DNA of 59,903 nucleotides, from NCBI GenBank assembly GCA_003602575.1, contig QQRY01000021.1:1-59903 (forward strand), given 5' to 3'. The position numbers and the translations under genes were made by a program. A model generated the notes under the pieces. It ran no database searches, was not told the DNA's origin, and saw nothing but the letters and a program-made list of their open reading frames with translations. The DNA comes from Candidatus Poseidoniales archaeon (GTDB lineage Archaea; Thermoplasmatota; Poseidoniia; Poseidoniales; Poseidoniaceae). Positions 26,322 through 59,579 of the stretch are shown here, piece after piece; position 1 is the first letter of the stretch; each line of letters opens with the position of its first letter.

Positions 26322-28259
26322 TTATTCAATATCATAAATTGATTCGGATGCTTTTTTCCGATTAATGAATAGTGCAGCAACTGTTGCAACAGAAATTGTG
26401 ACAAATGTAAATCCTGGGGTTTCTTCAGATTCGGGCATAAATGCATATTTAGAATCATACATCATTATGTCGATAGTAACTAGTGGAGATGATGAGTGAC
26501 CTCCCGATGAATTAGACTTTAGTCCACGAATAGAAATAGTATGGTTTCCATCAATTTCGATTCCTGGAAGATGTTCTAGTTGATGAATTATATCAATTGC
26601 ACTAATTTCGCCACTAGTGTCGGACTTTTCGAAACTGTGCAGGAATGTCCAATCATCAACGATGTGATTACTTCTCCACTGAATAGATTCTATGCCACCT
26701 GATGTGGAGAAGGCAATTGAGTCTTTAGGTGATAAATGGGCATGCATATTGTCATGTGTAGGATCTGTTTCAAGTTCTATATTCATCGAATCATCAAACA
26801 TGTAATATTTCTCTGCAGCTGCTAATACAGAATCTAGTGCTCTGACTTCACCGTGGCCATATACGTTATTTTGTCGATTTTTCGTAAAAATCGCTTGAAC
26901 ATCATTATCATCACAACCATCAGCGCCATCAATATCTTCCATATATGAACAATGGCGGTATTCTGCAGTTTCTTGCATGAAATTTCTAACCTCAAATGGG
27001 CTAAGATCTGGATTTGCTTGTAGCATAAGCGCAGCCACGCCTGCTGCTCCAGGGGTAGCCATCGAGGTTCCAGAAAATGCGGTATAACCATCGCCAGTAT
27101 TATGTGCTACAGACATAACATCAGAGCCTACATAAGCGATGTTTGGCTTAATTCGGTTCTCCTCTGTTGGACCTTGGCTAGAGTAAACTGCTATGGAAGA
27201 GTCTTTGTCAAGAGCACCAACTGTAATAGCGTCTTCTGCACTACCAGGAGTTCCTATTGTTCCACGGGTGGCAGAATTACCTGCTGCGATGAATAATGCG
27301 ATATCATTGTAAACCATTTCATTAGCCATTCGATTTACACTGTCTTCTTCTGAGGAAGTCCATTCAATTAGTCCAAATCCACCCAAAGACATCGAGGCAA
27401 CTCTAATATTAAACTGATAACGATTGTCAATAGTCCATTGCATTCCTGCCATTACGACTGCAAATGATCCCGAACCACCTGAATCAAGAACCTTAACGCC
27501 GACTAATTTCGCTTGTGGAGCCATACCTGGATTGTCATAAGTTGGTGCTCCAGTTCCAGCGGTAGTTCCAGCGCAATGTGAACCATGTCCTTGGTCATCA
27601 TAAGGGAATACCTCTGTGCCGTTAGTCAAAGTAGGATTGTTTACTGGGTCATAAAAAGCAATTACTTTTGGGTCGTTGGTTGAGTTATCATCATCCTGAT
27701 CATCCAAACTAGCATGGCTTCCATCAATTCCCGTGTCGATAATCGCTACAGTAGCACCCGAACCGTCATAACCAGTTTCTTCCCATGCAGTATCAACTCC
27801 ATGAAGCGCTACAGCATCTCCGTTAGCAATAGATAACATTCCATCGAGTTCAATCATTACAACTCCAGGAAGTTCATAGGTATCCCAAATTTTGTCCACT
27901 GAAATTCTTCCTGCCAAAGCGTCTATTCCTTCAAGAATCCATTCATGTTGATAATCCACTTCTTTTTCTAACATTGCGATTTCATCTTCACCAGGTGTGT
28001 GGTCAAAATCAATAATCAATGGCAGTGTGTTATCTTCATCAAGGAAAAATGGATTATCCATGTGTAATTCAACCATATCTCCAATACCATTTCCATTTCT
28101 ATCAACTGTGGTGTTAACCCACCAACCTTCAGTTTCATCATCTTCTGAAGAAATTGGAACCGGGGTTGCAATCGCTAGCATAGGTAAAATAAGTATGGAT
28201 AAACAAAACATCGAAATTGTAACTCGATTAATTTTCATCATGTCGCTCGTGTAATGCAC
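26322..28259 (-). CDS. S8 subtilisin-like serine protease with PGF-CTERM-like tail
   Basis: AIIDTGID, GHGSHCAG, AAGN, SGTSMATP catalytic motifs; TPGF + TM + RKK; start may be MMKINR near 28241. Confidence 0.92.
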   Translation of the reverse strand: MHYTSDMMKINRVTISMFCLSILILPMLAIATPVPISSEDDETEGWWVNTTVDRNGNGIGDMVELHMDNPFFLDEDNTLPLIIDFDHTPGEDEIAMLEKEVDYQHEWILEGIDALAGRISVDKIWDTYELPGVVMIELDGMLSIANGDAVALHGVDTAWEETGYDGSGATVAIIDTGIDGSHASLDDQDDDNSTNDPKVIAFYDPVNNPTLTNGTEVFPYDDQGHGSHCAGTTAGTGAPTYDNPGMAPQAKLVGVKVLDSGGSGSFAVVMAGMQWTIDNRYQFNIRVASMSLGGFGLIEWTSSEEDSVNRMANEMVYNDIALFIAAGNSATRGTIGTPGSAEDAITVGALDKDSSIAVYSSQGPTEENRIKPNIAYVGSDVMSVAHNTGDGYTAFSGTSMATPGAAGVAALMLQANPDLSPFEVRNFMQETAEYRHCSYMEDIDGADGCDDNDVQAIFTKNRQNNVYGHGEVRALDSVLAAAEKYYMFDDSMNIELETDPTHDNMHAHLSPKDSIAFSTSGGIESIQWRSNHIVDDWTFLHSFEKSDTSGEISAIDIIHQLEHLPGIEIDGNHTISIRGLKSNSSGGHSSSPLVTIDIMMYDSKYAFMPESEETPGFTFVTISVATVAALFINRKKASESIYDIE

Positions 28260-49219: not shown

Positions 49220-50161
49220 TCATTCTTCTTCCTTTTTGGAGTACATTTCTACAGCCATAGAAGGCGGTAAAATAACACTCCACCACTTAGGTCTCTTCAC
49301 GTCTCCTTCTTCAGTTACAAAGGAGCGGATTAGCATAGAGATTAGATCTATTATCACTACGACTACAAAGACTACAATTAGTAAGGCAAATGCCTTATTG
49401 TAATCAAATGGTGGATTGATGTAATTATCGATATACATACCGATTCCTCCAGCACCTACAAGACCTAAAACCGCTCCATGTCTTACATTATACTCGAACA
49501 TGAATAATAATTGACTAAGAAGGTGATTACTAGACTCTGGAATTACTACATGGAATAATTGTTCAGAATGTGTCAAACCCATTGCCAAACCAGACTCTAA
49601 CGGCGCGTTATGAACTCCTTCCATGGCCTCATACTGTAGTTTTCCTAAGTATCCAATAGTGTACAAAGTCATGGCTAAAATACCAGGTAATGGCCCAAAA
49701 CCGAGGGCGATTGCAAATAGTAAAGCCCAAATTATACTGGGTAGACTTCGTAGTCCAGCAAGTAAAACTCTTGCAGGAATTGCAATTGGCAGTGGAGCCA
49801 TATTATTTGCTGCAAAAGAGGCAATTGGAATTGAAAAGAAAAATCCTATCAAAGTTGCAACGAATGCCATTTTTATAGTAATTACCATTCCTGTCCAAGC
49901 CTTAGAACAGAATAATTCGATATTTTCATTACATACATCTCCATTGGGTTTGTGTAATGAACCATCTGCCCAAACCTCTGCCTCTAAAACCGACCAATCT
50001 GGAGGCAAGAGGTCTTCACTGAAGAATATCTTTAACTTTTCAGGTGCACCTTCTATTTGACCCCAATCATCGACTAAATCATCTAGAGATAACCAAGCTA
50101 GAAGTATTAAGAAAATACCAACAAAAAATAATTTCTTATTGATTGGAATCACCTTCCTCAA
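49220..50161 (-). CDS. PhnE-family ABC transporter permease
   Basis: RSLPSIIWAL, GKLQYEAME, FEYNVRHGAVLGLVGAGGIG. Confidence 0.88.
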   Translation of the reverse strand: MRKVIPINKKLFFVGIFLILLAWLSLDDLVDDWGQIEGAPEKLKIFFSEDLLPPDWSVLEAEVWADGSLHKPNGDVCNENIELFCSKAWTGMVITIKMAFVATLIGFFFSIPIASFAANNMAPLPIAIPARVLLAGLRSLPSIIWALLFAIALGFGPLPGILAMTLYTIGYLGKLQYEAMEGVHNAPLESGLAMGLTHSEQLFHVVIPESSNHLLSQLLFMFEYNVRHGAVLGLVGAGGIGMYIDNYINPPFDYNKAFALLIVVFVVVVIIDLISMLIRSFVTEEGDVKRPKWWSVILPPSMAVEMYSKKEEE

Positions 50162-50813
50162 TCAAATTATCATCAATGATTCGCCAAATTCTATCAGCGA
50201 GCTCAATCGCTCTTTCTTCATGGTGTTCGATTAAGATTAAGGTCGCTCCAATTTCGTCAACGATCTCTTTAGTAGCGGCAATTATAGAATTTACATTCTC
50301 TTTATCGAGTTCTCCTAAGAATTCATCTGCAAGGATGAGTTTAGGCCTTTGGACAAGTGTTCTTGCAATAGCAACACGTCTCTGTTGACCTCCAGAAAGA
50401 ATTCTAACCGGTTCATCTGCAATATCTAGAATTTTTAATGCCCTCATGGCATTATCCATATCTTGTTTGAGTTTCTTATCTAGTGGAAACCAGAATGGAA
50501 ACCACCTAGATCTTCTTGTTCTTGCCCCTAATGCGACATTACTTCGTACTGTAGAGTGCCTTACTAAACCAAGTCTCTGGGGTATGTAACCAATTCCACC
50601 TCTTTTGGGATAGTTATGATATATCTCCCCAGATAGAGGTCGAATTAAACCTGCTATAGTCCTCATCAAAGTAGTCTTTCCAATTCCAGATGAACCCAAA
50701 ATTGCAATCGTATCTCCCGGATAAATGGTTTTGTTAATATCTGATACCAATGGTTTGTCATAGCCAACAGATAGACCTCTAAGAGTTACACTCTCAGGGT
50801 CTATCTGCTGCAT
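50136..50813 (-). CDS. PhnC-family ABC transporter ATPase
   Basis: GSSGIGKTT, LSGGQQRRVAIAR, ILADE; start refined to MQQID after a GGTGGTGAG RBS. Confidence 0.88.
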   Translation of the reverse strand: MQQIDPESVTLRGLSVGYDKPLVSDINKTIYPGDTIAILGSSGIGKTTLMRTIAGLIRPLSGEIYHNYPKRGGIGYIPQRLGLVRHSTVRSNVALGARTRRSRWFPFWFPLDKKLKQDMDNAMRALKILDIADEPVRILSGGQQRRVAIARTLVQRPKLILADEFLGELDKENVNSIIAATKEIVDEIGATLILIEHHEERAIELADRIWRIIDDNLIEEGDSNQ

Positions 50814-50901
50814 CTCACCACCACCTCGAGAGGGGGATTTTTCAACTACCAAGTAACCATCACCATGTGCCCGTAGAATTATTCTATTTAGAGCAAGTAG
50901 G

Positions 50902-53109
50902 TCATTCTTGTTCAGAAGTTTCAGCATCTGTGATGCCGTACTTATCTGATGAATGGTAATATTCTGAAAGACCTGGCACAGATGCTAGAAGATCAGAATA
51001 ACTTGCCAAATGATTTTGGCTATTTCCTGCTTTCAATCCATAACCCTTCGAAGTAACAGAAGATAGAATCTCTCCACCACATTGGTTCATAGGAATATCA
51101 GCAACTTGGTGAGTCACTGTATTGTAACATCCTGTGTAATTTTGACCTCCCATAGGATAATTGTCAACCCACATTTCATCGTTCCAACTCAACATTGCAT
51201 TCAAAATTGCATTACGTGTGTGGATATCTAACTTTTCAGGGTTATACATTACAGGGTGGCTTGGAGATTGTCCAAATGATGGTAGTTGGACATATTGGTC
51301 CATTGGAAGACACCAAGCTTCATTCTCAGAAGCATTATCATCGCCACAGTATTTTTCAACTGTACTGAAATCGTCTCCCTTAGCAAAAGCAACATCTCCA
51401 TATCCTTCACTCAAACACTCAATAGCACCACTATATCCCGAATATAGGGCTCCAGAATCAGGAATTGATGCTGGATTTCCATTACTTGCCGAGCCATCGA
51501 AATGGTTGTCAATAGTCGTTCTAAGTGAGTTTACATCTGTATTATCTCCTAGAGGAGTAACATATCCGTTCTTAATTAGATACCCCATTGGCATCAACAT
51601 TCCAGCAGATTTTAGCCATCCGGTGTGACAAGAGGTCTTTCCTGCCATTAATGCGAACGGATCTGTTGAGTCATCTCCATCCAAGTGAGCATTAGCGATA
51701 TCTGAACCGTTTAGAACCCATGCTGAAGCATTGTAGTGTGTCGCTCCTTCTGCGGTTGTGGTTTCAACAGCTAATACAGAAAGTCCGTATTGTTTCCATC
51801 CAATCCATGCTGGTCCACCTTCCATGAATCCAATATCTGCATTTCCAAATCTCAATGCTTGGATAATCATTCCTTCGGATGAAACATCATACAAGTTAAC
51901 ATTCACTCCAAGGTCTGATGCAAGTCTATCAGCCATTCCTTGAGCATCAGCATTTGCACTTGCGTCATCTGCTAAATAATATGCAACATTAATCGTAGAT
52001 TTTACTGCAGCAGTTTCTGAACCATTTGTGAAAGCATTTCCATACTTACTGGAAATACCTGGGATGTTTTGAAGCGCTGCTCCATATGTTCCCAAATGTG
52101 TTTCAGCATCGGTAACAATCATAGCATCAGTACCTAGAACATTGTTTAAAATTTCTAGGCCATTGGTATCATCTTTCATTGCTACAAGTGCATCTTGAAT
52201 CAAGGTCACTTTGTCTGCTGCGAGGACATCACTGTTATACATGACAGAGTGACTAGGAGATGATCCAAATTTCGGTAAAGCAACATATTGACTCATATCC
52301 AAACACCATGCTTGATTCAAGGTTGCATCCTCATTATCACAATATGAAGCAACTGTCGAATCCTTAGCAAACGCTACATCTCCATATCCAGTACTCAAAC
52401 ATTCAACGGCTCCACTATATCCTGAGTACAATGCGCCACTTTCTGGAATAGATGCTGGATTTCCAGCACCTGTACTTCCATCAAAGTAGTAATTAATTGT
52501 AGTTCGTAAAGTTTCAGTATCAGACATGTCTCCTTGAACATTGACATATCCGTTACCAATCATGTAACCCATAGGCATCAACATTCCTGCTGATTTTAGC
52601 CATCCAGTGTGACAAGATGTTTTTCCAGCAAGTAGAGTGAAAGGATCGGTTGAATCATCATTGTCTAGATGAGCTGTTGCCATTTCTGAATCTGCTTTGA
52701 CCCAAGCATGTGCATCATAATAGGCACGCCCATCGCTTTTTGTGTCAGCAGCCATAACGTCTAGATCATATGCATTCCAGCCAACCCAAGCAGGTCCACC
52801 ATCAATATTCATTGCAATATCTGCGTTTCCAAATCTAAGTGCTTCCATAGCGATTCCTGAACTTCCAACATCATATAATGAAACATCCATATCTAACTTA
52901 TCACAGAGATAATCTGCAATCTGTTGAGGATTTGATAGATCTGTATCTGTCAAATCTTCTTTTATTTCATATGCTATTTTTAATTCATCTCCGCTACAAT
53001 TATCTGTAGAAGATGTAGAATCATCATCACTACCAATACAACCTGCCATAGCAGTAGTCACCATTAGTAGTATCATTAGGCTCGATTTCGCAATTTTTGT
53101 TTCCAACAT
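50902..53109 (-). CDS. bilobed transferrin-like (PhnD-fold) substrate-binding lipoprotein
   Basis: Lipobox AMAGC; two lobes about 328 aa apart, each with GKTSCHTGWLKSAG, YSGYSGAxECL..GYGDVAFAK and SPSH; ATG 53109 follows a GAGTGA RBS. Confidence 0.85.
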   Translation of the reverse strand: MLETKIAKSSLMILLMVTTAMAGCIGSDDDSTSSTDNCSGDELKIAYEIKEDLTDTDLSNPQQIADYLCDKLDMDVSLYDVGSSGIAMEALRFGNADIAMNIDGGPAWVGWNAYDLDVMAADTKSDGRAYYDAHAWVKADSEMATAHLDNDDSTDPFTLLAGKTSCHTGWLKSAGMLMPMGYMIGNGYVNVQGDMSDTETLRTTINYYFDGSTGAGNPASIPESGALYSGYSGAVECLSTGYGDVAFAKDSTVASYCDNEDATLNQAWCLDMSQYVALPKFGSSPSHSVMYNSDVLAADKVTLIQDALVAMKDDTNGLEILNNVLGTDAMIVTDAETHLGTYGAALQNIPGISSKYGNAFTNGSETAAVKSTINVAYYLADDASANADAQGMADRLASDLGVNVNLYDVSSEGMIIQALRFGNADIGFMEGGPAWIGWKQYGLSVLAVETTTAEGATHYNASAWVLNGSDIANAHLDGDDSTDPFALMAGKTSCHTGWLKSAGMLMPMGYLIKNGYVTPLGDNTDVNSLRTTIDNHFDGSASNGNPASIPDSGALYSGYSGAIECLSEGYGDVAFAKGDDFSTVEKYCGDDNASENEAWCLPMDQYVQLPSFGQSPSHPVMYNPEKLDIHTRNAILNAMLSWNDEMWVDNYPMGGQNYTGCYNTVTHQVADIPMNQCGGEILSSVTSKGYGLKAGNSQNHLASYSDLLASVPGLSEYYHSSDKYGITDAETSEQE

Positions 53110-53120
53110 TTTTATCACTC

Positions 53121-53138
53121 TTTTAGGGAGGCCGAAAA
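53121..53138. promoter_or_regulatory. palindromic operator A, TTTTAGG-N4-CCGAAAA (DtxR/SirR-like)
   Basis: Inverted repeat with one mismatch, at the expected transcription start of the transferrin-like gene. Confidence 0.6.
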
Positions 53139-53155
53139 GTAACTCATATATATTA

Positions 53156-53171
53156 TTTAGGTTTCCCTAAA
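53156..53171. promoter_or_regulatory. palindromic operator B, TTTAGG-TTTC-CCTAAA (DtxR/SirR-like)
   Basis: Perfect 6-4-6 inverted repeat directly upstream of a TATA-like TAATATATATG on the minus strand. Confidence 0.7.
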
Positions 53172-53190
53172 AAAGCAAAATAGTCGACTT

Positions 53191-54111
53191 TCACTCTACT
53201 TTGACTTGACTTATGCCTTTTACAATCTGATTTAGATACCGAACTTCTATTTCTAAATTACAAGCCGAACTACAAATATCATGACCGTTTTCATAAACAG
53301 AAATTATCTCATCATGATTCCAAACGCTTTCATTATCTGATGAGATAAAACAGTGCGCTTCCTTTGTCAAATTTTCATTACTTATTGCTGAAATATCGAT
53401 ATCTCCAATAGAGGAAATTATGAAAGAAATAAACCTTGAATCATCATCGGAATTATAGTAACTTAGAAATTGAATCTTGTAAAATATGTTACTATCATTA
53501 ACGATGTAAGTAATTTCCTTTGGGATTACTCGATGAACTGAAATATCATAATCATACCATTCTAACCTAGAATCTGAGGTTTCGGTAGGTTCTCCTTCAG
53601 GAATTGAATCCACGTTTTGAAACTCTTCCTCAGTAGTATATCCCAAAACATTCTCCCCAAGTATGATGTCTGTCTTTGAAAAACTAATACTATAATTACT
53701 ATCATTGGTCTGTTGCATATCTGAGAAACTTAAGAGAATAAAATCATCTGAATCTGAATTAACTTCAATGGTAAAGCTATTTCCGTCTGAATTAAGTTTG
53801 GTTTGAATTAGCCCATTATGGGAAATGCTAGAGGTTAGCCCACTCTTTGTACAATCATAGCGATTATTGTCACCTATGAGAGTCATTGTTAATTTAGACC
53901 AGTCAAGATTATCTTCACCAGAAGAAAAGGAAAATTGCAATAATGGATCATTGGATTGGTTTGAAACATTACTATTGTAATCCTCTACCAGAATTTCATT
54001 CTCTGTAGTTAATTCTGCTGAATAAGATGTAACAAGAAAATACCATCCCACTGCCCCGATTACTAAAACAATTAGAACTCCGGCCAAAAGTCGCTTTAAC
54101 CAATTTGACAT
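53191..54111 (-). CDS. membrane-anchored protein with HmuY-like heme-binding domain
   Basis: N-terminal TM; EWYDYDISVHRVIPKEITYIV...YKIQFLSYY...SRFISF resembles the HmuY C-terminal motif; start refined to MSNWL. Confidence 0.65.
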   Translation of the reverse strand: MSNWLKRLLAGVLIVLVIGAVGWYFLVTSYSAELTTENEILVEDYNSNVSNQSNDPLLQFSFSSGEDNLDWSKLTMTLIGDNNRYDCTKSGLTSSISHNGLIQTKLNSDGNSFTIEVNSDSDDFILLSFSDMQQTNDSNYSISFSKTDIILGENVLGYTTEEEFQNVDSIPEGEPTETSDSRLEWYDYDISVHRVIPKEITYIVNDSNIFYKIQFLSYYNSDDDSRFISFIISSIGDIDISAISNENLTKEAHCFISSDNESVWNHDEIISVYENGHDICSSACNLEIEVRYLNQIVKGISQVKVE

Positions 54112-54140
54112 GGTGTTCGCTCCCTTCAATCAAGTATAAA

Positions 54141-54156
54141 CTTTGGTTGCCCTAAA
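54141..54156. promoter_or_regulatory. palindromic operator C (minus strand TTTAGG-GCAA-CCAAAG) abutting a TTTATA box
   Basis: Same motif and position relative to the TATA element as operator B; TATA about 24 nt upstream of ATG 54111. Confidence 0.6.
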
Positions 54157-54160
54157 CTAT

Positions 54161-55719: not shown

Positions 55720-56748
55720 ATGTCGGAAGTAGTGCTAGAGATGAAGGATGCCGCTTTTAGGCATCTGATTTCTTCACGGAGTTTGACTAACCCCTTTGGG
55801 AAAAAACAAGGCTCAGGCATATTTTCAATCAATCTTAAAATTAGAAAAGGACAGATATTAGGCCTTGTTGGACCTAATGGCGCTGGAAAGACAACTTTGA
55901 TGAGAATTCTTGCTGGTATTTTTCCGATTCAGAAAGGCAAGATAATGTATAGAGATTCCGAGATGAAGGAGTTTTCAGCAATCTCCGACTTTGAACTACG
56001 TTCTGTGGTCGGCCATATGCCTGAACAAGTCCGTTGGCAAGGCAAGGTCTCTGTAAAAAGAACATTAGAAGACATTGCTGAAATGCGCGGAGTGTCTTAT
56101 CGAGTCGATGGAATTCTCATGATGGTTGGTTTGTCTGAAATGAAAGATACGCCACTCGACCAACTTAGCCAAGGAATGAGGCAGCGATTATCTCTAGCTA
56201 CTGCATTGCTTGGTTCGCCTAAAATTCTATTGCTTGATGAACCTTTTAATGGATTAGATCCTGTTGCAATTAGAGCATTTGAGAAACTATTACACAAACT
56301 TACAGAAAAGGGTGTTTCGATAATTATTTCTTCCCATAGAGTCGCTGGAATGGTACACATCGTTGACCGATTGGCGCTAATTCATCGAGGGCAGTTGCTA
56401 ATCGAGGGAACACTGAAGGACATCGAAAATGAATATGAATTAGACAACAGAATCGAAATTCAAGGGTCCGGAAAAATTCCTGAATTTGAAAGCATTTTAA
56501 CTGATTCAGCATCTCTTTTAGATACTCAAACTTCAGAAGATGGGTGGTTAGCAGTCATAAGAAATCAAGATAGAAATTTATTAAAAAAATTAATCGAATC
56601 AAATGCAGAAATAACCACTTGGAAATCTAAAGATACTGATATTGTTGAGATGCTATGTGCAGCGACTGGACAAAACTTAGATGAAATCGGATTTGGAGTA
56701 ATTTCCTCAACAATGATTCCTTACAAGAGCCGGGGTGAAGAAGAATGA
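55720..56748 (+). CDS. ABC-2 type exporter ATP-binding protein
   Basis: GPNGAGKTT, LSQGMRQR, LLLDEPFNGLDP, ISSH. Confidence 0.9.
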   Translation: MSEVVLEMKDAAFRHLISSRSLTNPFGKKQGSGIFSINLKIRKGQILGLVGPNGAGKTTLMRILAGIFPIQKGKIMYRDSEMKEFSAISDFELRSVVGHMPEQVRWQGKVSVKRTLEDIAEMRGVSYRVDGILMMVGLSEMKDTPLDQLSQGMRQRLSLATALLGSPKILLLDEPFNGLDPVAIRAFEKLLHKLTEKGVSIIISSHRVAGMVHIVDRLALIHRGQLLIEGTLKDIENEYELDNRIEIQGSGKIPEFESILTDSASLLDTQTSEDGWLAVIRNQDRNLLKKLIESNAEITTWKSKDTDIVEMLCAATGQNLDEIGFGVISSTMIPYKSRGEEE

Positions 56749-57635: not shown

Positions 57636-59579
57636 ATGGCAGGAAATCGTTTCGCTGTGCATTCGACCGCAATTGGACTAATCATTTTGATGATTATGAT
57701 GACTCTTACTCCGCTTGCAGAAGAATACCAATTAGATGAAAAGGAAATTTTAGAAGCAAGTGGAAGACAACTGGATGACATCGATTGTTCAGGATACACA
57801 TTTGAAGATCTATTCGACTACAACTATGCTTTATTCGACATAGGTATTGGAGATGATTGGGCTACTTCAAGTATGTCTGCTACAGCATATGTCAATGGTA
57901 GCAACTCTGCAACAGTAAGAGAAAACCTGGACGGGCTTTTTGATGGAGCGCCAGGTGGAAACAACTCTTGGATTAGTACCGATGAGAGAGAAGCGGTAAG
58001 AGAAATCGGTCCAAAATGTATTGTTGACATGGACACACGTCTCGGACTTCGCGAAGGTATTGCTCACCGTGGAGGAGTTGATTGGAATGACTTTGAATTT
58101 GTCGAAGAGGGAATTGCTCTTGATGAAGTTGACCTAGTTCCAGAAGGCCACTCACAAGAACGCAATTGTCAAAATCTACTAGCATCAAATAACTGTACTG
58201 AAGTCCCTGTGAGTGTTACAGACGACCTACAAATATCACTATTTGTTGCAAATGGTGAAAGTAATAACATGAGATTTGACCAATTGCCAAACCAAGGAAA
58301 TTCCAACTTCACTCTCGCTCTAAATGTAACAAATATGACTAATGCAGAACTAATGTTGACATTCCCTGTATTACAAGGTCTCAGAATTACAAATTTCAGT
58401 ATGCGTGATGATGGTGTTGAAATAAACTCATACCAACCTGAAGAAATCTATCTCCCTGATGGTCGCCTAAGAATAAGTCAACAGGTAGATTACGATAAAT
58501 CACTTTGGCCTACAGGAAGAAATCTTTTCATTGATTTCACAACTGCAGCACCTGAATCTAATGATATTCCAGAATGGACTGGAGCTGCCCCTAGCGATAA
58601 TACAATAATTCCAATAATGAATGGTGGAGAATACTCTACTGTTTCCGGGGACGTAATTAGTACATGGGCTAGTGACACAAATGGTTGGAATCTAGAGTGT
58701 ACATTTGCAGAAATGGGTTGGTCTTCAAGACAAAACCAAGATGGAGACCTTTTGGTGACCTCACCATCAGGAACATCTACTTCTACCGCTGAATGTTCTA
58801 TTCGAGACCCATTTGGTGCAGAGAATAATGACACACTAACCTTTACTTTTGGACAACCATTTACCGCTACAGGTGAAATTACAGATGGTGAAAATATTGA
58901 CTTTACTGTGACACCTACAGGACTTATCAGCGAACTTAGCATTGCAGCACATGCTCATCAAATGCAAACCATGGGTGCAATGAGATCTGTATCACTTACC
59001 AATGCCCCAATGACAATATCCTTACCTATGGATGGACTTAGACCAGGTAGTGTAATGGTCATGGGTAATGCTCAAAATAGTAACATGCTGAACTTTGAAT
59101 TCATGCTAGACTTTGGGCTTGAGAAGGTGAGTTTACCTCCGGTTCTAGAAATTAAAGTTAATTTTGAAGGTAAAAATGGTACTTGGGATGCAAGTGGATT
59201 GAAGTTTACACTAAAGGGCGAGGTTATCGACCCTGATGGTGAAGCAGTAACACTCTCTTTGACCCTATGTGGTTCTCAGGCAACTGACTTTACTAAAGTT
59301 GGAAAGAATTGGGAAATTGATGTCTCAATAGCCACTTGTGTTCAACAAGGAATCACTGAATACGATGTATCCATATCAGCAACTGATGAGTCAGGTGTTG
59401 TAAGTACTCTTAGTGTGAATGTGAAAGACCCATATGCAAATGATGACACTTCCTCAGAAACAAATGATGATGGCGACATTGAAAGTTCTGAGAGTTCAGG
59501 GCTGCCAAGTATATCATTTATGGCAACCTTGGCAGTCACTCTACTTGGCGCTGCATACGCAAGTAGAAGGAAACAATAA
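57636..59579 (+). CDS. large secreted acidic surface protein with C-terminal sorting signal
   Basis: Signal peptide, beta-rich Ig-like segments, many N-x-S/T sequons, Ser/Asp linker, GLPSISF + TM + RRK. Confidence 0.7.
   Translation: MAGNRFAVHSTAIGLIILMIMMTLTPLAEEYQLDEKEILEASGRQLDDIDCSGYTFEDLFDYNYALFDIGIGDDWATSSMSATAYVNGSNSATVRENLDGLFDGAPGGNNSWISTDEREAVREIGPKCIVDMDTRLGLREGIAHRGGVDWNDFEFVEEGIALDEVDLVPEGHSQERNCQNLLASNNCTEVPVSVTDDLQISLFVANGESNNMRFDQLPNQGNSNFTLALNVTNMTNAELMLTFPVLQGLRITNFSMRDDGVEINSYQPEEIYLPDGRLRISQQVDYDKSLWPTGRNLFIDFTTAAPESNDIPEWTGAAPSDNTIIPIMNGGEYSTVSGDVISTWASDTNGWNLECTFAEMGWSSRQNQDGDLLVTSPSGTSTSTAECSIRDPFGAENNDTLTFTFGQPFTATGEITDGENIDFTVTPTGLISELSIAAHAHQMQTMGAMRSVSLTNAPMTISLPMDGLRPGSVMVMGNAQNSNMLNFEFMLDFGLEKVSLPPVLEIKVNFEGKNGTWDASGLKFTLKGEVIDPDGEAVTLSLTLCGSQATDFTKVGKNWEIDVSIATCVQQGITEYDVSISATDESGVVSTLSVNVKDPYANDDTSSETNDDGDIESSESSGLPSISFMATLAVTLLGAAYASRRKQ

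Follow-up and report, generated by a model that had tools for sequence, protein, structure and literature searches.

Members of the Poseidoniales rank among the most abundant archaea of the surface ocean. As none has ever been cultured, their gene regulation can be read only from sequence. One such sequence, a 59,903-nt stretch from a Candidatus Poseidoniales archaeon (contig QQRY01000021.1, positions 1 to 59,903, of assembly GCA_003602575.1; hereafter the window), contains an operon for a transferrin-like binding protein and its ATP-binding cassette (ABC) partners, and in front of that operon stand inverted repeats of the form TTTAGG-N4-CCTAAA. The question raised by this locus is whether these repeats are the operators of a metal-dependent repressor and, if so, which metal and which genes are involved. 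The initial annotation had described three palindromes, two at the transferrin-like operon and one at a neighbouring gene, as a putative metal-repressor regulon of the DtxR type concerned with iron, and that interpretation proves largely correct. The two palindromes at the operon (53156-53171 and 53122-53137) are very probably DtxR/IdeR/TroR-type operators, through which the lone DtxR-family regulator of this genome would repress the importer operon in response to iron; the third is a more doubtful case.

All of the genes near the three palindromes lie on the minus strand, with the ATG of the 735-amino-acid (aa) binding-protein gene at 53109 and that of a 306-aa gene at 54111. The letters confirm the three sequences that had been described, TTTTAGGGAGGCCGAAAA at 53121-53138, TTTAGGTTTCCCTAAA at 53156-53171 and CTTTGGTTGCCCTAAA at 54141-54156, together with the minus-strand promoters, which read TTTAGGGAAACCTAAA-TAATATATAT for the 735-aa gene and TTTAGGGCAACCAAAG-TTTATAC for the 306-aa gene. 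Measured against TTTAGG-N4-CCTAAA, the distal copy at the operon has no mismatch, the proximal copy one and the third copy two. In the orientation of the 735-aa gene, the promoter runs from the distal palindrome through TAATATATAT, 8 nt, the proximal palindrome TTTCGGCCTCCCTAAA and 12 nt (AAGAGTGATAAA) to the ATG (Table 1). The two palindromes are 34 bp apart and the proximal one spans the predicted transcription start and the 5' leader; the distal one occupies the position of the transcription factor B recognition element (BRE).

Table 1. Positions of the palindromes, promoter elements and genes discussed in the text
Feature	Position	Strand	Character	Basis
Distal operator (putative), TTTAGGTTTCCCTAAA	53156..53171		perfect palindrome; abuts the upstream side of the TATA box, the BRE position of the minus-strand operon	sequence, genome scan
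TATA box, TAATATATAT	53146..53155	-	sits between both operators	sequence
Proximal operator (putative), TTTAGGGAGGCCGAAA	53122..53137		one mismatch, T to G in one half-site	sequence, genome scan
735-aa two-lobed ABC substrate-binding protein, transferrin / Phosphonate-bd families	50902..53109	-		Pfam, structure-profile matches
ABC ATPase, PhnC-like	50136..50927	-	downstream operon gene	
PhnE-type permease	49220..50161	-		NCBIfam PhnE equivalog, 219.7 bits (cut-off 216.7)
Candidate third operator, TTTAGGGCAACCAAAG (minus strand)	54141..54156		two mismatches, confined to the TATA-proximal half; spans -45 to -30 relative to the 306-aa gene	
TATA box TTTATAC of the 306-aa gene	54134..54140	-	-29 to -23 from the ATG; leaderless-type promoter	
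306-aa membrane-anchored protein	53191..54111	-	distant, sub-threshold HmuY-like signal	

The position of the start site was estimated from the genome itself. Across 567 upstream regions there is an excess of T at -29/-28 and of A at -26/-25 relative to the start codon, which is the signature of leaderless promoters, and this signal was used to calibrate the distance from TATA box to start. With that spacing, the transcription start of the operon is predicted at about 53124-53128, within the proximal site. Contigs from metatranscriptomes lie over the binding-protein gene, the 306-aa gene and a DUF454 gene. Those on the binding-protein gene stop at 53102, 53111 and 53119 without loose ends (three runs of a single study), a weak hint that the leader extends at least to 53119; none bridges 53120-53190 or 54112-54160, a gap that is uninformative, and contigs do not define start sites. 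The same 567 regions show a GG peak at -9/-8, separate from the T/A signal; leaderless promoters and Shine-Dalgarno-led genes thus occur side by side in this genome.

Strong evidence that the operon palindromes are more than fortuitous comes from counting the motif, both in the window and in the whole 1.97-Mb assembly (59 contigs, 39.8% G+C, 87% complete), for which genes were called by crude heuristics based on open reading frames (ORFs) and functions taken from Pfam family names. With up to two mismatches allowed, the window holds 10 matches against a mean of 3.55 in shuffled sequence, a number reached by 1 of 100 shuffles, and only the three copies described above are intergenic, the other seven lying within ORFs. 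For the genome, 59 other palindromes of equal composition, made by permuting the half-site, served as the null. Exact matches number two, both of them intergenic and in promoter windows (null mean 0.17, or 0.02 intergenic), and two of the four one-mismatch matches are intergenic (null mean 0.44; three of the 59 null palindromes reach two). There are 78 matches with two mismatches, of which 4 are intergenic (null mean 7.46) and 2 fall in promoter windows (null mean 5.02). The distal and proximal copies at the operon are far above chance, and the two-mismatch class occurs at background frequency.

The remaining strong matches in this genome fall beside genes of iron metabolism, as had been predicted for suf and heme genes. 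The second exact site, C39:27816, lies between sufC-sufB-sufD and a divergent NifU-like gene, and an intergenic one-mismatch site, C53:10653, is found about 85 nt upstream of hemA-hemCD (gene names near both sites were assigned by reading the translations together with the Pfam matches of orthologues). Judged by these neighbours, the box appears to mark a small iron regulon here that comprises sufCBD, the NifU-like gene and hemA besides the importer operon.

Related genomes extend this picture considerably. The comparison covered 31 genomes, namely this one, 18 congeneric genomes and 12 from elsewhere in the order (Poseidoniales, Marine Group II), all of them metagenome-assembled genomes (MAGs) of uncultured organisms. 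The exact 16-mer is present in 27 of the 31, at 74 sites in all against 10 for a reversed-pattern control (both numbers summed from the per-genome table). These sites form 61 regions, 13 of which have twin sites, and when the adjacent ORFs were searched against Pfam, iron-linked families were found to adjoin 51 of the 61. The largest group consists of the Transferrin/Phosphonate-bd binding protein (22 regions), followed by Fea1, the "low iron-inducible periplasmic protein" (8 regions), and sufC, often with a divergent NifU-like gene (8 regions, one assignment, L027, being uncertain). Flavodoxin accounts for 4 regions, the small chain of ribonucleotide reductase (RNR) and the FTR1 iron permease for 3 each, hemA for 2 and a 4Fe-4S ferredoxin for 1. 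Outside these iron-linked families, four regions adjoin an M28 peptidase (one, L025, loosely placed) and four adjoin genes without a family, one lies between convergent genes and is probably due to chance, and one is at a contig end.

Conservation upstream of orthologues, the lack of which would have refuted the regulon by the terms of the initial annotation, is complete for the binding protein: its homologues occur in 24 of the 31 genomes, and all 24 carry a site upstream. An exact site lies just upstream of the gene in 22 of the 24, at the position of the distal operator, and an AT-rich, TATA-like element is found at the matching position in every aligned orthologous promoter. The other two genomes have related sequences: in G024 a one-mismatch site abuts the TATA box, and in G027 (C3 ~171900-172030; L111/L120) there are twin palindromes of a symmetric variant, TTCAGG-N4-CCTGAA. 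Throughout the exact sites of the 31 genomes the spacer letters vary freely and the half-sites are fixed.

The layout of the sites is conserved as well. Two exact sites 33-35 bp apart are found in 11 binding-protein or Fea1 promoters, and two further pairs are separated by 44 and 53 bp. In these twin-site promoters the TATA-like element follows the distal site by 0-3 nt, and 14-15 nt separate the end of the proximal site from the ATG. Where there is a single site (FTR1, M28, flavodoxin and some binding proteins), it occupies the BRE position and starts at -43 to -75 relative to the ATG; for FTR1 and M28 the start is at -45 to -47. The one-mismatch TTTCGG variant of the proximal operator in this genome is retained in its closest relatives, L010 and L012.

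Beyond the order the signal fades. Among 71 other genomes there are 37 exact sites against 22 control sites (both summed), and since this enrichment is only modest, a claim for the motif across the phylum was dropped. Nor does every family of the order-wide regulon carry the box in this genome. With up to three mismatches allowed, no site was found in the 200 bp upstream of its flavodoxin-like gene, RNR small-chain gene or ferredoxin gene, nor in those of three other genes or gene groups here, a 647-aa protein at 57636, ABC genes at 55720 and DUF454. The orthologue of the RNR small chain (C36:34058, 88% identical) is without an upstream site, the M28-like gene has only a three-mismatch match far upstream, and a tblastn search for Fea1 and FTR1 homologues in the genome, which is 87% complete, gave none.

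What kind of protein would recognize such a box? Archaeoglobus fulgidus MDR1 and other archaeal DtxR-type repressors provide a lead, as they are reported to exert metal-dependent repression of an ABC metal-importer operon from operators that overlap the start site. That regulators of this family bind TTAGG...CCTAA palindromes, in archaea as elsewhere, agrees with two experimental reports, PMC8464063 (for TTAGGNNNNCCTAA) and PMC10783522. The closest parallel is TroR of Haloferax volcanii, whose motif in chromatin immunoprecipitation sequencing (ChIP-seq) is TTTAGGC-NNN-CCTAAAANAN; as a semi-palindrome, TTTAGGC-NNN-CCTAAA, it has the same half-sites and 4-nt spacing as the box described here (PMC10783522). 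Tandem TroR copies about 30 bp apart are reported from a TATA-containing siderophore promoter, where either one suffices for iron-dependent repression, an arrangement that resembles the pair about 34 bp apart around the TATA box of the importer operon. In actinobacteria, one IdeR dimer of Saccharopolyspora erythraea binds the 14-bp TTAGGNNNNCCTAA, each monomer reading one CCTAA (PMC8464063), and this single-dimer consensus is exactly the 14 bp found here.

There are also differences from these systems. TroR belongs to the Halobacteriota and the present system to the Thermoplasmatota; position 7 in gene orientation is mostly G here but C in the text describing the TroR logo; Haloferax has three DtxR paralogues where this genome has one; and the Haloferax targets include siderophore synthesis, whereas those here are a transferrin-like ABC importer, Fea1, FTR1, flavodoxin, suf and hemA (for Haloferax, PMC10783522). 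Classical actinobacterial boxes are 19-bp double-dimer sites, in contrast to the isolated 16-bp single palindromes seen here, which stand in pairs, about 34 bp from one another, on either side of an archaeal TATA box. The sites would represent the DtxR/IdeR/TroR operator type, known from elsewhere but with no earlier description from this lineage, and the single-dimer recognition code of TroR and IdeR would be extended from Halobacteria and Actinobacteria to a third lineage, the Thermoplasmatota. A search of the literature, with subscription journals outside its coverage, found no description of an iron regulon or DtxR motif in Poseidoniales or Marine Group II. The principle is already known; the new element is its members, a regulon that spans the order in an uncultured ocean archaeon and has at its centre a transferrin homologue with PhnE/PhnC-type partners.

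A candidate for the regulator is found outside the window, which, as the initial annotation noted, holds no regulator gene. The genome has a single DtxR-family gene, C22:6058-6723, which encodes 221 aa and matches PF01325 (56.7 bits) and PF02742 (65.6 bits), both above the cut-offs; PF04023 is precomputed on many of its homologues. This agrees with the build of the family, an N-terminal winged helix followed by a domain for dimerisation and metal binding and a C-terminal SH3-like/FeoA domain. The protein is 82% identical to its counterpart in a Candidatus Poseidoniaceae MAG, and a DtxR-family gene is also present in 29 of the 31 relatives. Across the phylum the family occurs in 78 of 81 Thermoplasmatota genomes, a near-ubiquity that leaves no contrast of presence and absence to set beside the motif. 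Aligned to IdeR of Mycobacterium tuberculosis, the C22 protein keeps H79, E83, H98, C102, E105 and H106, and the residues at H79, C102, E105 and H106 are invariant in 13 homologues; we take positions 79, 83, 98, 102, 105 and 106 to be the metal ligands of IdeR, by its numbering. In three other Thermoplasmatota genomes (G034, G045 and G035; L121, L122 and L123), the sole exact site lies 16-34 nt upstream of the ATG of the genome's own DtxR-family gene and adjoins a TATA-like element, which suggests autoregulation by a DtxR-family protein in those genomes. G045 has, in addition, a second, degenerate copy just upstream of its TATA-like element.

These elements can be assembled into a mechanism of the kind proposed by the initial annotation, which had envisaged occlusion of the BRE, TATA box and start region. 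One dimer of the C22 protein would bind each palindrome, and the metal-loaded form, most likely carrying Fe2+, would occupy both sites when iron is sufficient. The distal dimer, overlapping the BRE and abutting the TATA box, would compete with TFB and TBP, and the proximal dimer, lying over the predicted start, would block RNA polymerase. The operon for the transferrin-homologous ABC importer would in this way be repressed at iron sufficiency and derepressed at iron scarcity. Occlusion is a reasonable mode of control because the sites overlie both the BRE and the predicted transcription start, and repression fits genes for uptake and for sparing iron, such as those for the binding protein, Fea1, FTR1 and flavodoxin.

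Several observations weigh against this iron-repressor interpretation. Repression at iron sufficiency is counter-intuitive for users of iron such as suf, hemA, RNR and ferredoxin. The regulator's own promoter in this genome has no site within 200 bp, even with three mismatches allowed, and the relatives in which the box is conserved are kin and not independent samples. The proximal site has a T to G change at position 3 of one CCTAA repeat; since the same change in all four repeats abolishes IdeR binding (PMC8464063), this may be a weaker operator than the perfect twins found in other species. Three of the four base-contacting residues of IdeR differ in the C22 protein (Pro39 to Ala, Thr40 to Ser and Gln43 to Glu, with Ser37 kept). 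Finally, the residue at Met10 of IdeR is Glu in the C22 protein, and its best NCBIfam model is the MntR equivalog, at 90.5 bits against a cut-off of 350.

For the third palindrome, at the 306-aa gene, it is chance resemblance that has to be weighed most seriously, and we lean towards it. By this account the BRE-like CCAAAG at the TATA box happens to stand beside TTTAGG, and the 306-aa gene lies outside the regulon. The three palindromes differ in standing: the exact and one-mismatch copies rise above background, whereas 54141-54156 belongs to the class that is found at or below background among intergenic and promoter matches and has seven further members in the window. The BRE region is G/C and then A-rich genome-wide, so that half of the resemblance may come free, and a single half-site holds both mismatches, one of which is at the thymine critical for IdeR (PMC8464063). 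Homologues of the 306-aa protein (31-38% identity) are found in 7 genomes of the genus, and none of the seven genes has a site with up to two mismatches in the 250 bp before it; a cupredoxin-like gene precedes three of them. The two closest relatives share the operon type but not the 306-aa gene. On the other side, the third copy is, apart from the operon pair, the sole intergenic match of the window and lies one gene away from the strongest member of the regulon. Its order of elements (TTTAGGGCAACCAAAG, TTTATAC, 22 nt, ATG, with the transcription start predicted at or beside 54111), its position abutting TTTATA at -29 and the G at position 7 match the layout seen where FTR1, M28 and binding-protein promoters have a single site; one half-site is perfect, and the conserved proximal operator next door tolerates a change at the matching position. 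A weak operator of the 306-aa gene is thus a tentative reading, to which we would give a little less than an even chance.

For the operon pair, an alternative that keeps the sites as real operators of the DtxR-family protein is that the protein senses manganese (as an MntR/TroR-like regulator) or several metals, rather than iron specifically. The MntR match and the Glu at Met10 favour this, as do the closest solved relatives, which include SloR, ScaR and "metal-dependent" regulators, and the JGI label of homologues, "Mn-dependent", which is generic. The company kept by the box is typical of iron, however: transferrin homologue, Fea1, FTR1, flavodoxin, suf, hemA and ferredoxin adjoin it, and no manganese transporter was seen among the 61 motif regions. 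The position of IdeR Cys102, which we take to be a mark of iron-type DtxR members, is also Cys in all 13 homologues and Glu in the manganese-type relatives shown in the alignments. We consider a manganese or multi-metal sensor unlikely.

Less probable still is the notion that a regulator of another family binds the palindromes and that the DtxR homologue controls something else. It would account for a regulator gene that lies on another contig with no site in its own promoter, and at 87% completeness other regulators may be missing from the assembly. Neither Fur (PF01475) nor Rrf2 has a match in the assembled genome, however, and the Fur box consensus is unlike TTTAGG-N4-CCTAAA. In three other genomes of the phylum the sole exact site is in the promoter of the DtxR-family gene itself, and the motif is identical to sites defined by experiment for DtxR-family proteins of an archaeon and of actinobacteria (PMC10783522 and PMC8464063). 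Hairpins in a 5' leader RNA, acting as attenuators or in translational control, are very improbable: the proximal site is probably transcribed and its inverted repeat could form a 6-bp stem, but that stem is short, A/U-rich and interrupted by a mismatch in this window, distal sites, lying before the TATA box, are not transcribed, two divergent genes share the suf/NifU-like site, and free variation of the spacer with fixed half-sites is what protein recognition predicts.

With the palindrome pair read as iron-responsive operators, the identity of the regulated transporter deserves comment. The 735-aa protein matches Pfam Transferrin (PF00405) in two stretches at 107.8 bits (cut-off 20.3) and Phosphonate-bd at 92.2 bits, each lobe matching both families. 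The best solved-structure relatives of the first lobe are lactoferrin (E 4.6e-22), ovotransferrin and serotransferrin, and SCHTG...AG and GYSGA...GDVAF blocks align between the protein and the solved transferrins. By these matches the binding protein is a true sequence homologue of eukaryotic transferrins, two-lobed like them; in the relatives there are one-lobe forms of ~350 aa and two-lobe forms of ~720-735 aa. Because the permease is a PhnE equivalog and the ATPase PhnC-like, automatic annotation would probably misname the operon a phosphonate transporter. The genes that share its box argue instead that it is an iron importer, and the box would thereby speak for iron import by a "phosphonate-type" ABC system with a transferrin-homologous binding protein.

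A broader proposal is that this "phosphonate" operon serves Marine Group II as its main iron-regulated importer of Fe(III) and forms the core of an order-wide TroR regulon with Fea1, FTR1 and flavodoxin, in which the position of the operator sets the sign of control; we regard it as evenly poised between right and wrong. Sites over the BRE or start would repress genes for uptake and for sparing iron, and sites farther upstream, as at RNR, would activate iron users. At the RNR small-chain genes (L045, L058 and L064) the box precedes a CATTATACAC element by about 45 nt and the called ATG by 83-122 nt, which seems more suited to activation than to repression. Activation from about 45 nt upstream of a TATA-like element would suit the precedent of TroR, which represses uptake genes in an iron-dependent manner but also activates dpsA (PMC10783522).

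The box supplies a defined, testable iron regulon for the Poseidoniales, and the genes for the binding protein, Fea1, FTR1 and flavodoxin are nominated as metatranscriptome markers of iron limitation. If the broader proposal is true, the genes of the regulon would be in-situ markers of iron stress for an abundant, uncultured ocean archaeon.

Among the members of the regulon in related genomes, Fea1 belongs to the family of algal phytotransferrin. It lies under the box in L047, L059, L060, L061, L066, L070, L071 and L073; four of these eight promoters have two exact sites flanking the TATA box, and the other four combine one exact site with a one-mismatch distal copy in a like arrangement. A peptidase of the M28 family also recurs (L004, L057 and L062, as well as L025 and L017), with the site at -46 of a leaderless-type promoter. 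The variant palindromes of G027 read TTCAGGCTGCCCTGAA and TTCAGGGCGCCTTGAA, their half-sites altered in mirror fashion. A genome-wide switch of specificity to TTCAGG-N4-CCTGAA was considered for G027 and rejected, as there is only one exact site of that form in the genome and none in four others.

The 306-aa protein resists classification. No Pfam or NCBIfam family scores above threshold, and the label "HmuY-like" given to it by the initial annotation is not upheld, since HmuY (PF14064) reaches only 15.8 bits with this protein and 17.2 and 26.1 bits with two homologues, against a cut-off of 27; HmuY also appears on 10% of the members of one Atlas cluster, and it is a distant lead only. A profile search for solved relatives gave nothing but noise at E > 0.6, and the AlphaFold model, built from an 8-sequence alignment, has a mean pLDDT of 53.8 and is unusable. 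The homologues in L031, L036 and L037 directly follow the small cupredoxin-like gene mentioned above (...FYYACEPH...MYGKVIVG), which hints at a copper or redox context for the family rather than haem.

Two further observations concern genes near iron boxes. A block that the whole genus conserves lies between the box and sufC at C39:27738-27815 and in L007, L014 and L053, with the approximate form ACGCAATACTGCG ... TTTACAC ... GATAAAGGAG; it may represent a long leader or an additional regulatory element, and masked bases (X in the translation) break sufC itself at C39 ~27100-27200. In the window, the 647-aa protein (57636-59579, plus strand), which is secreted or anchored, is 32-33% identical to proteins encoded divergently from FTR1 or binding-protein genes, and those relatives lie under iron boxes in Marine Group IIb genomes (L075 and L026).

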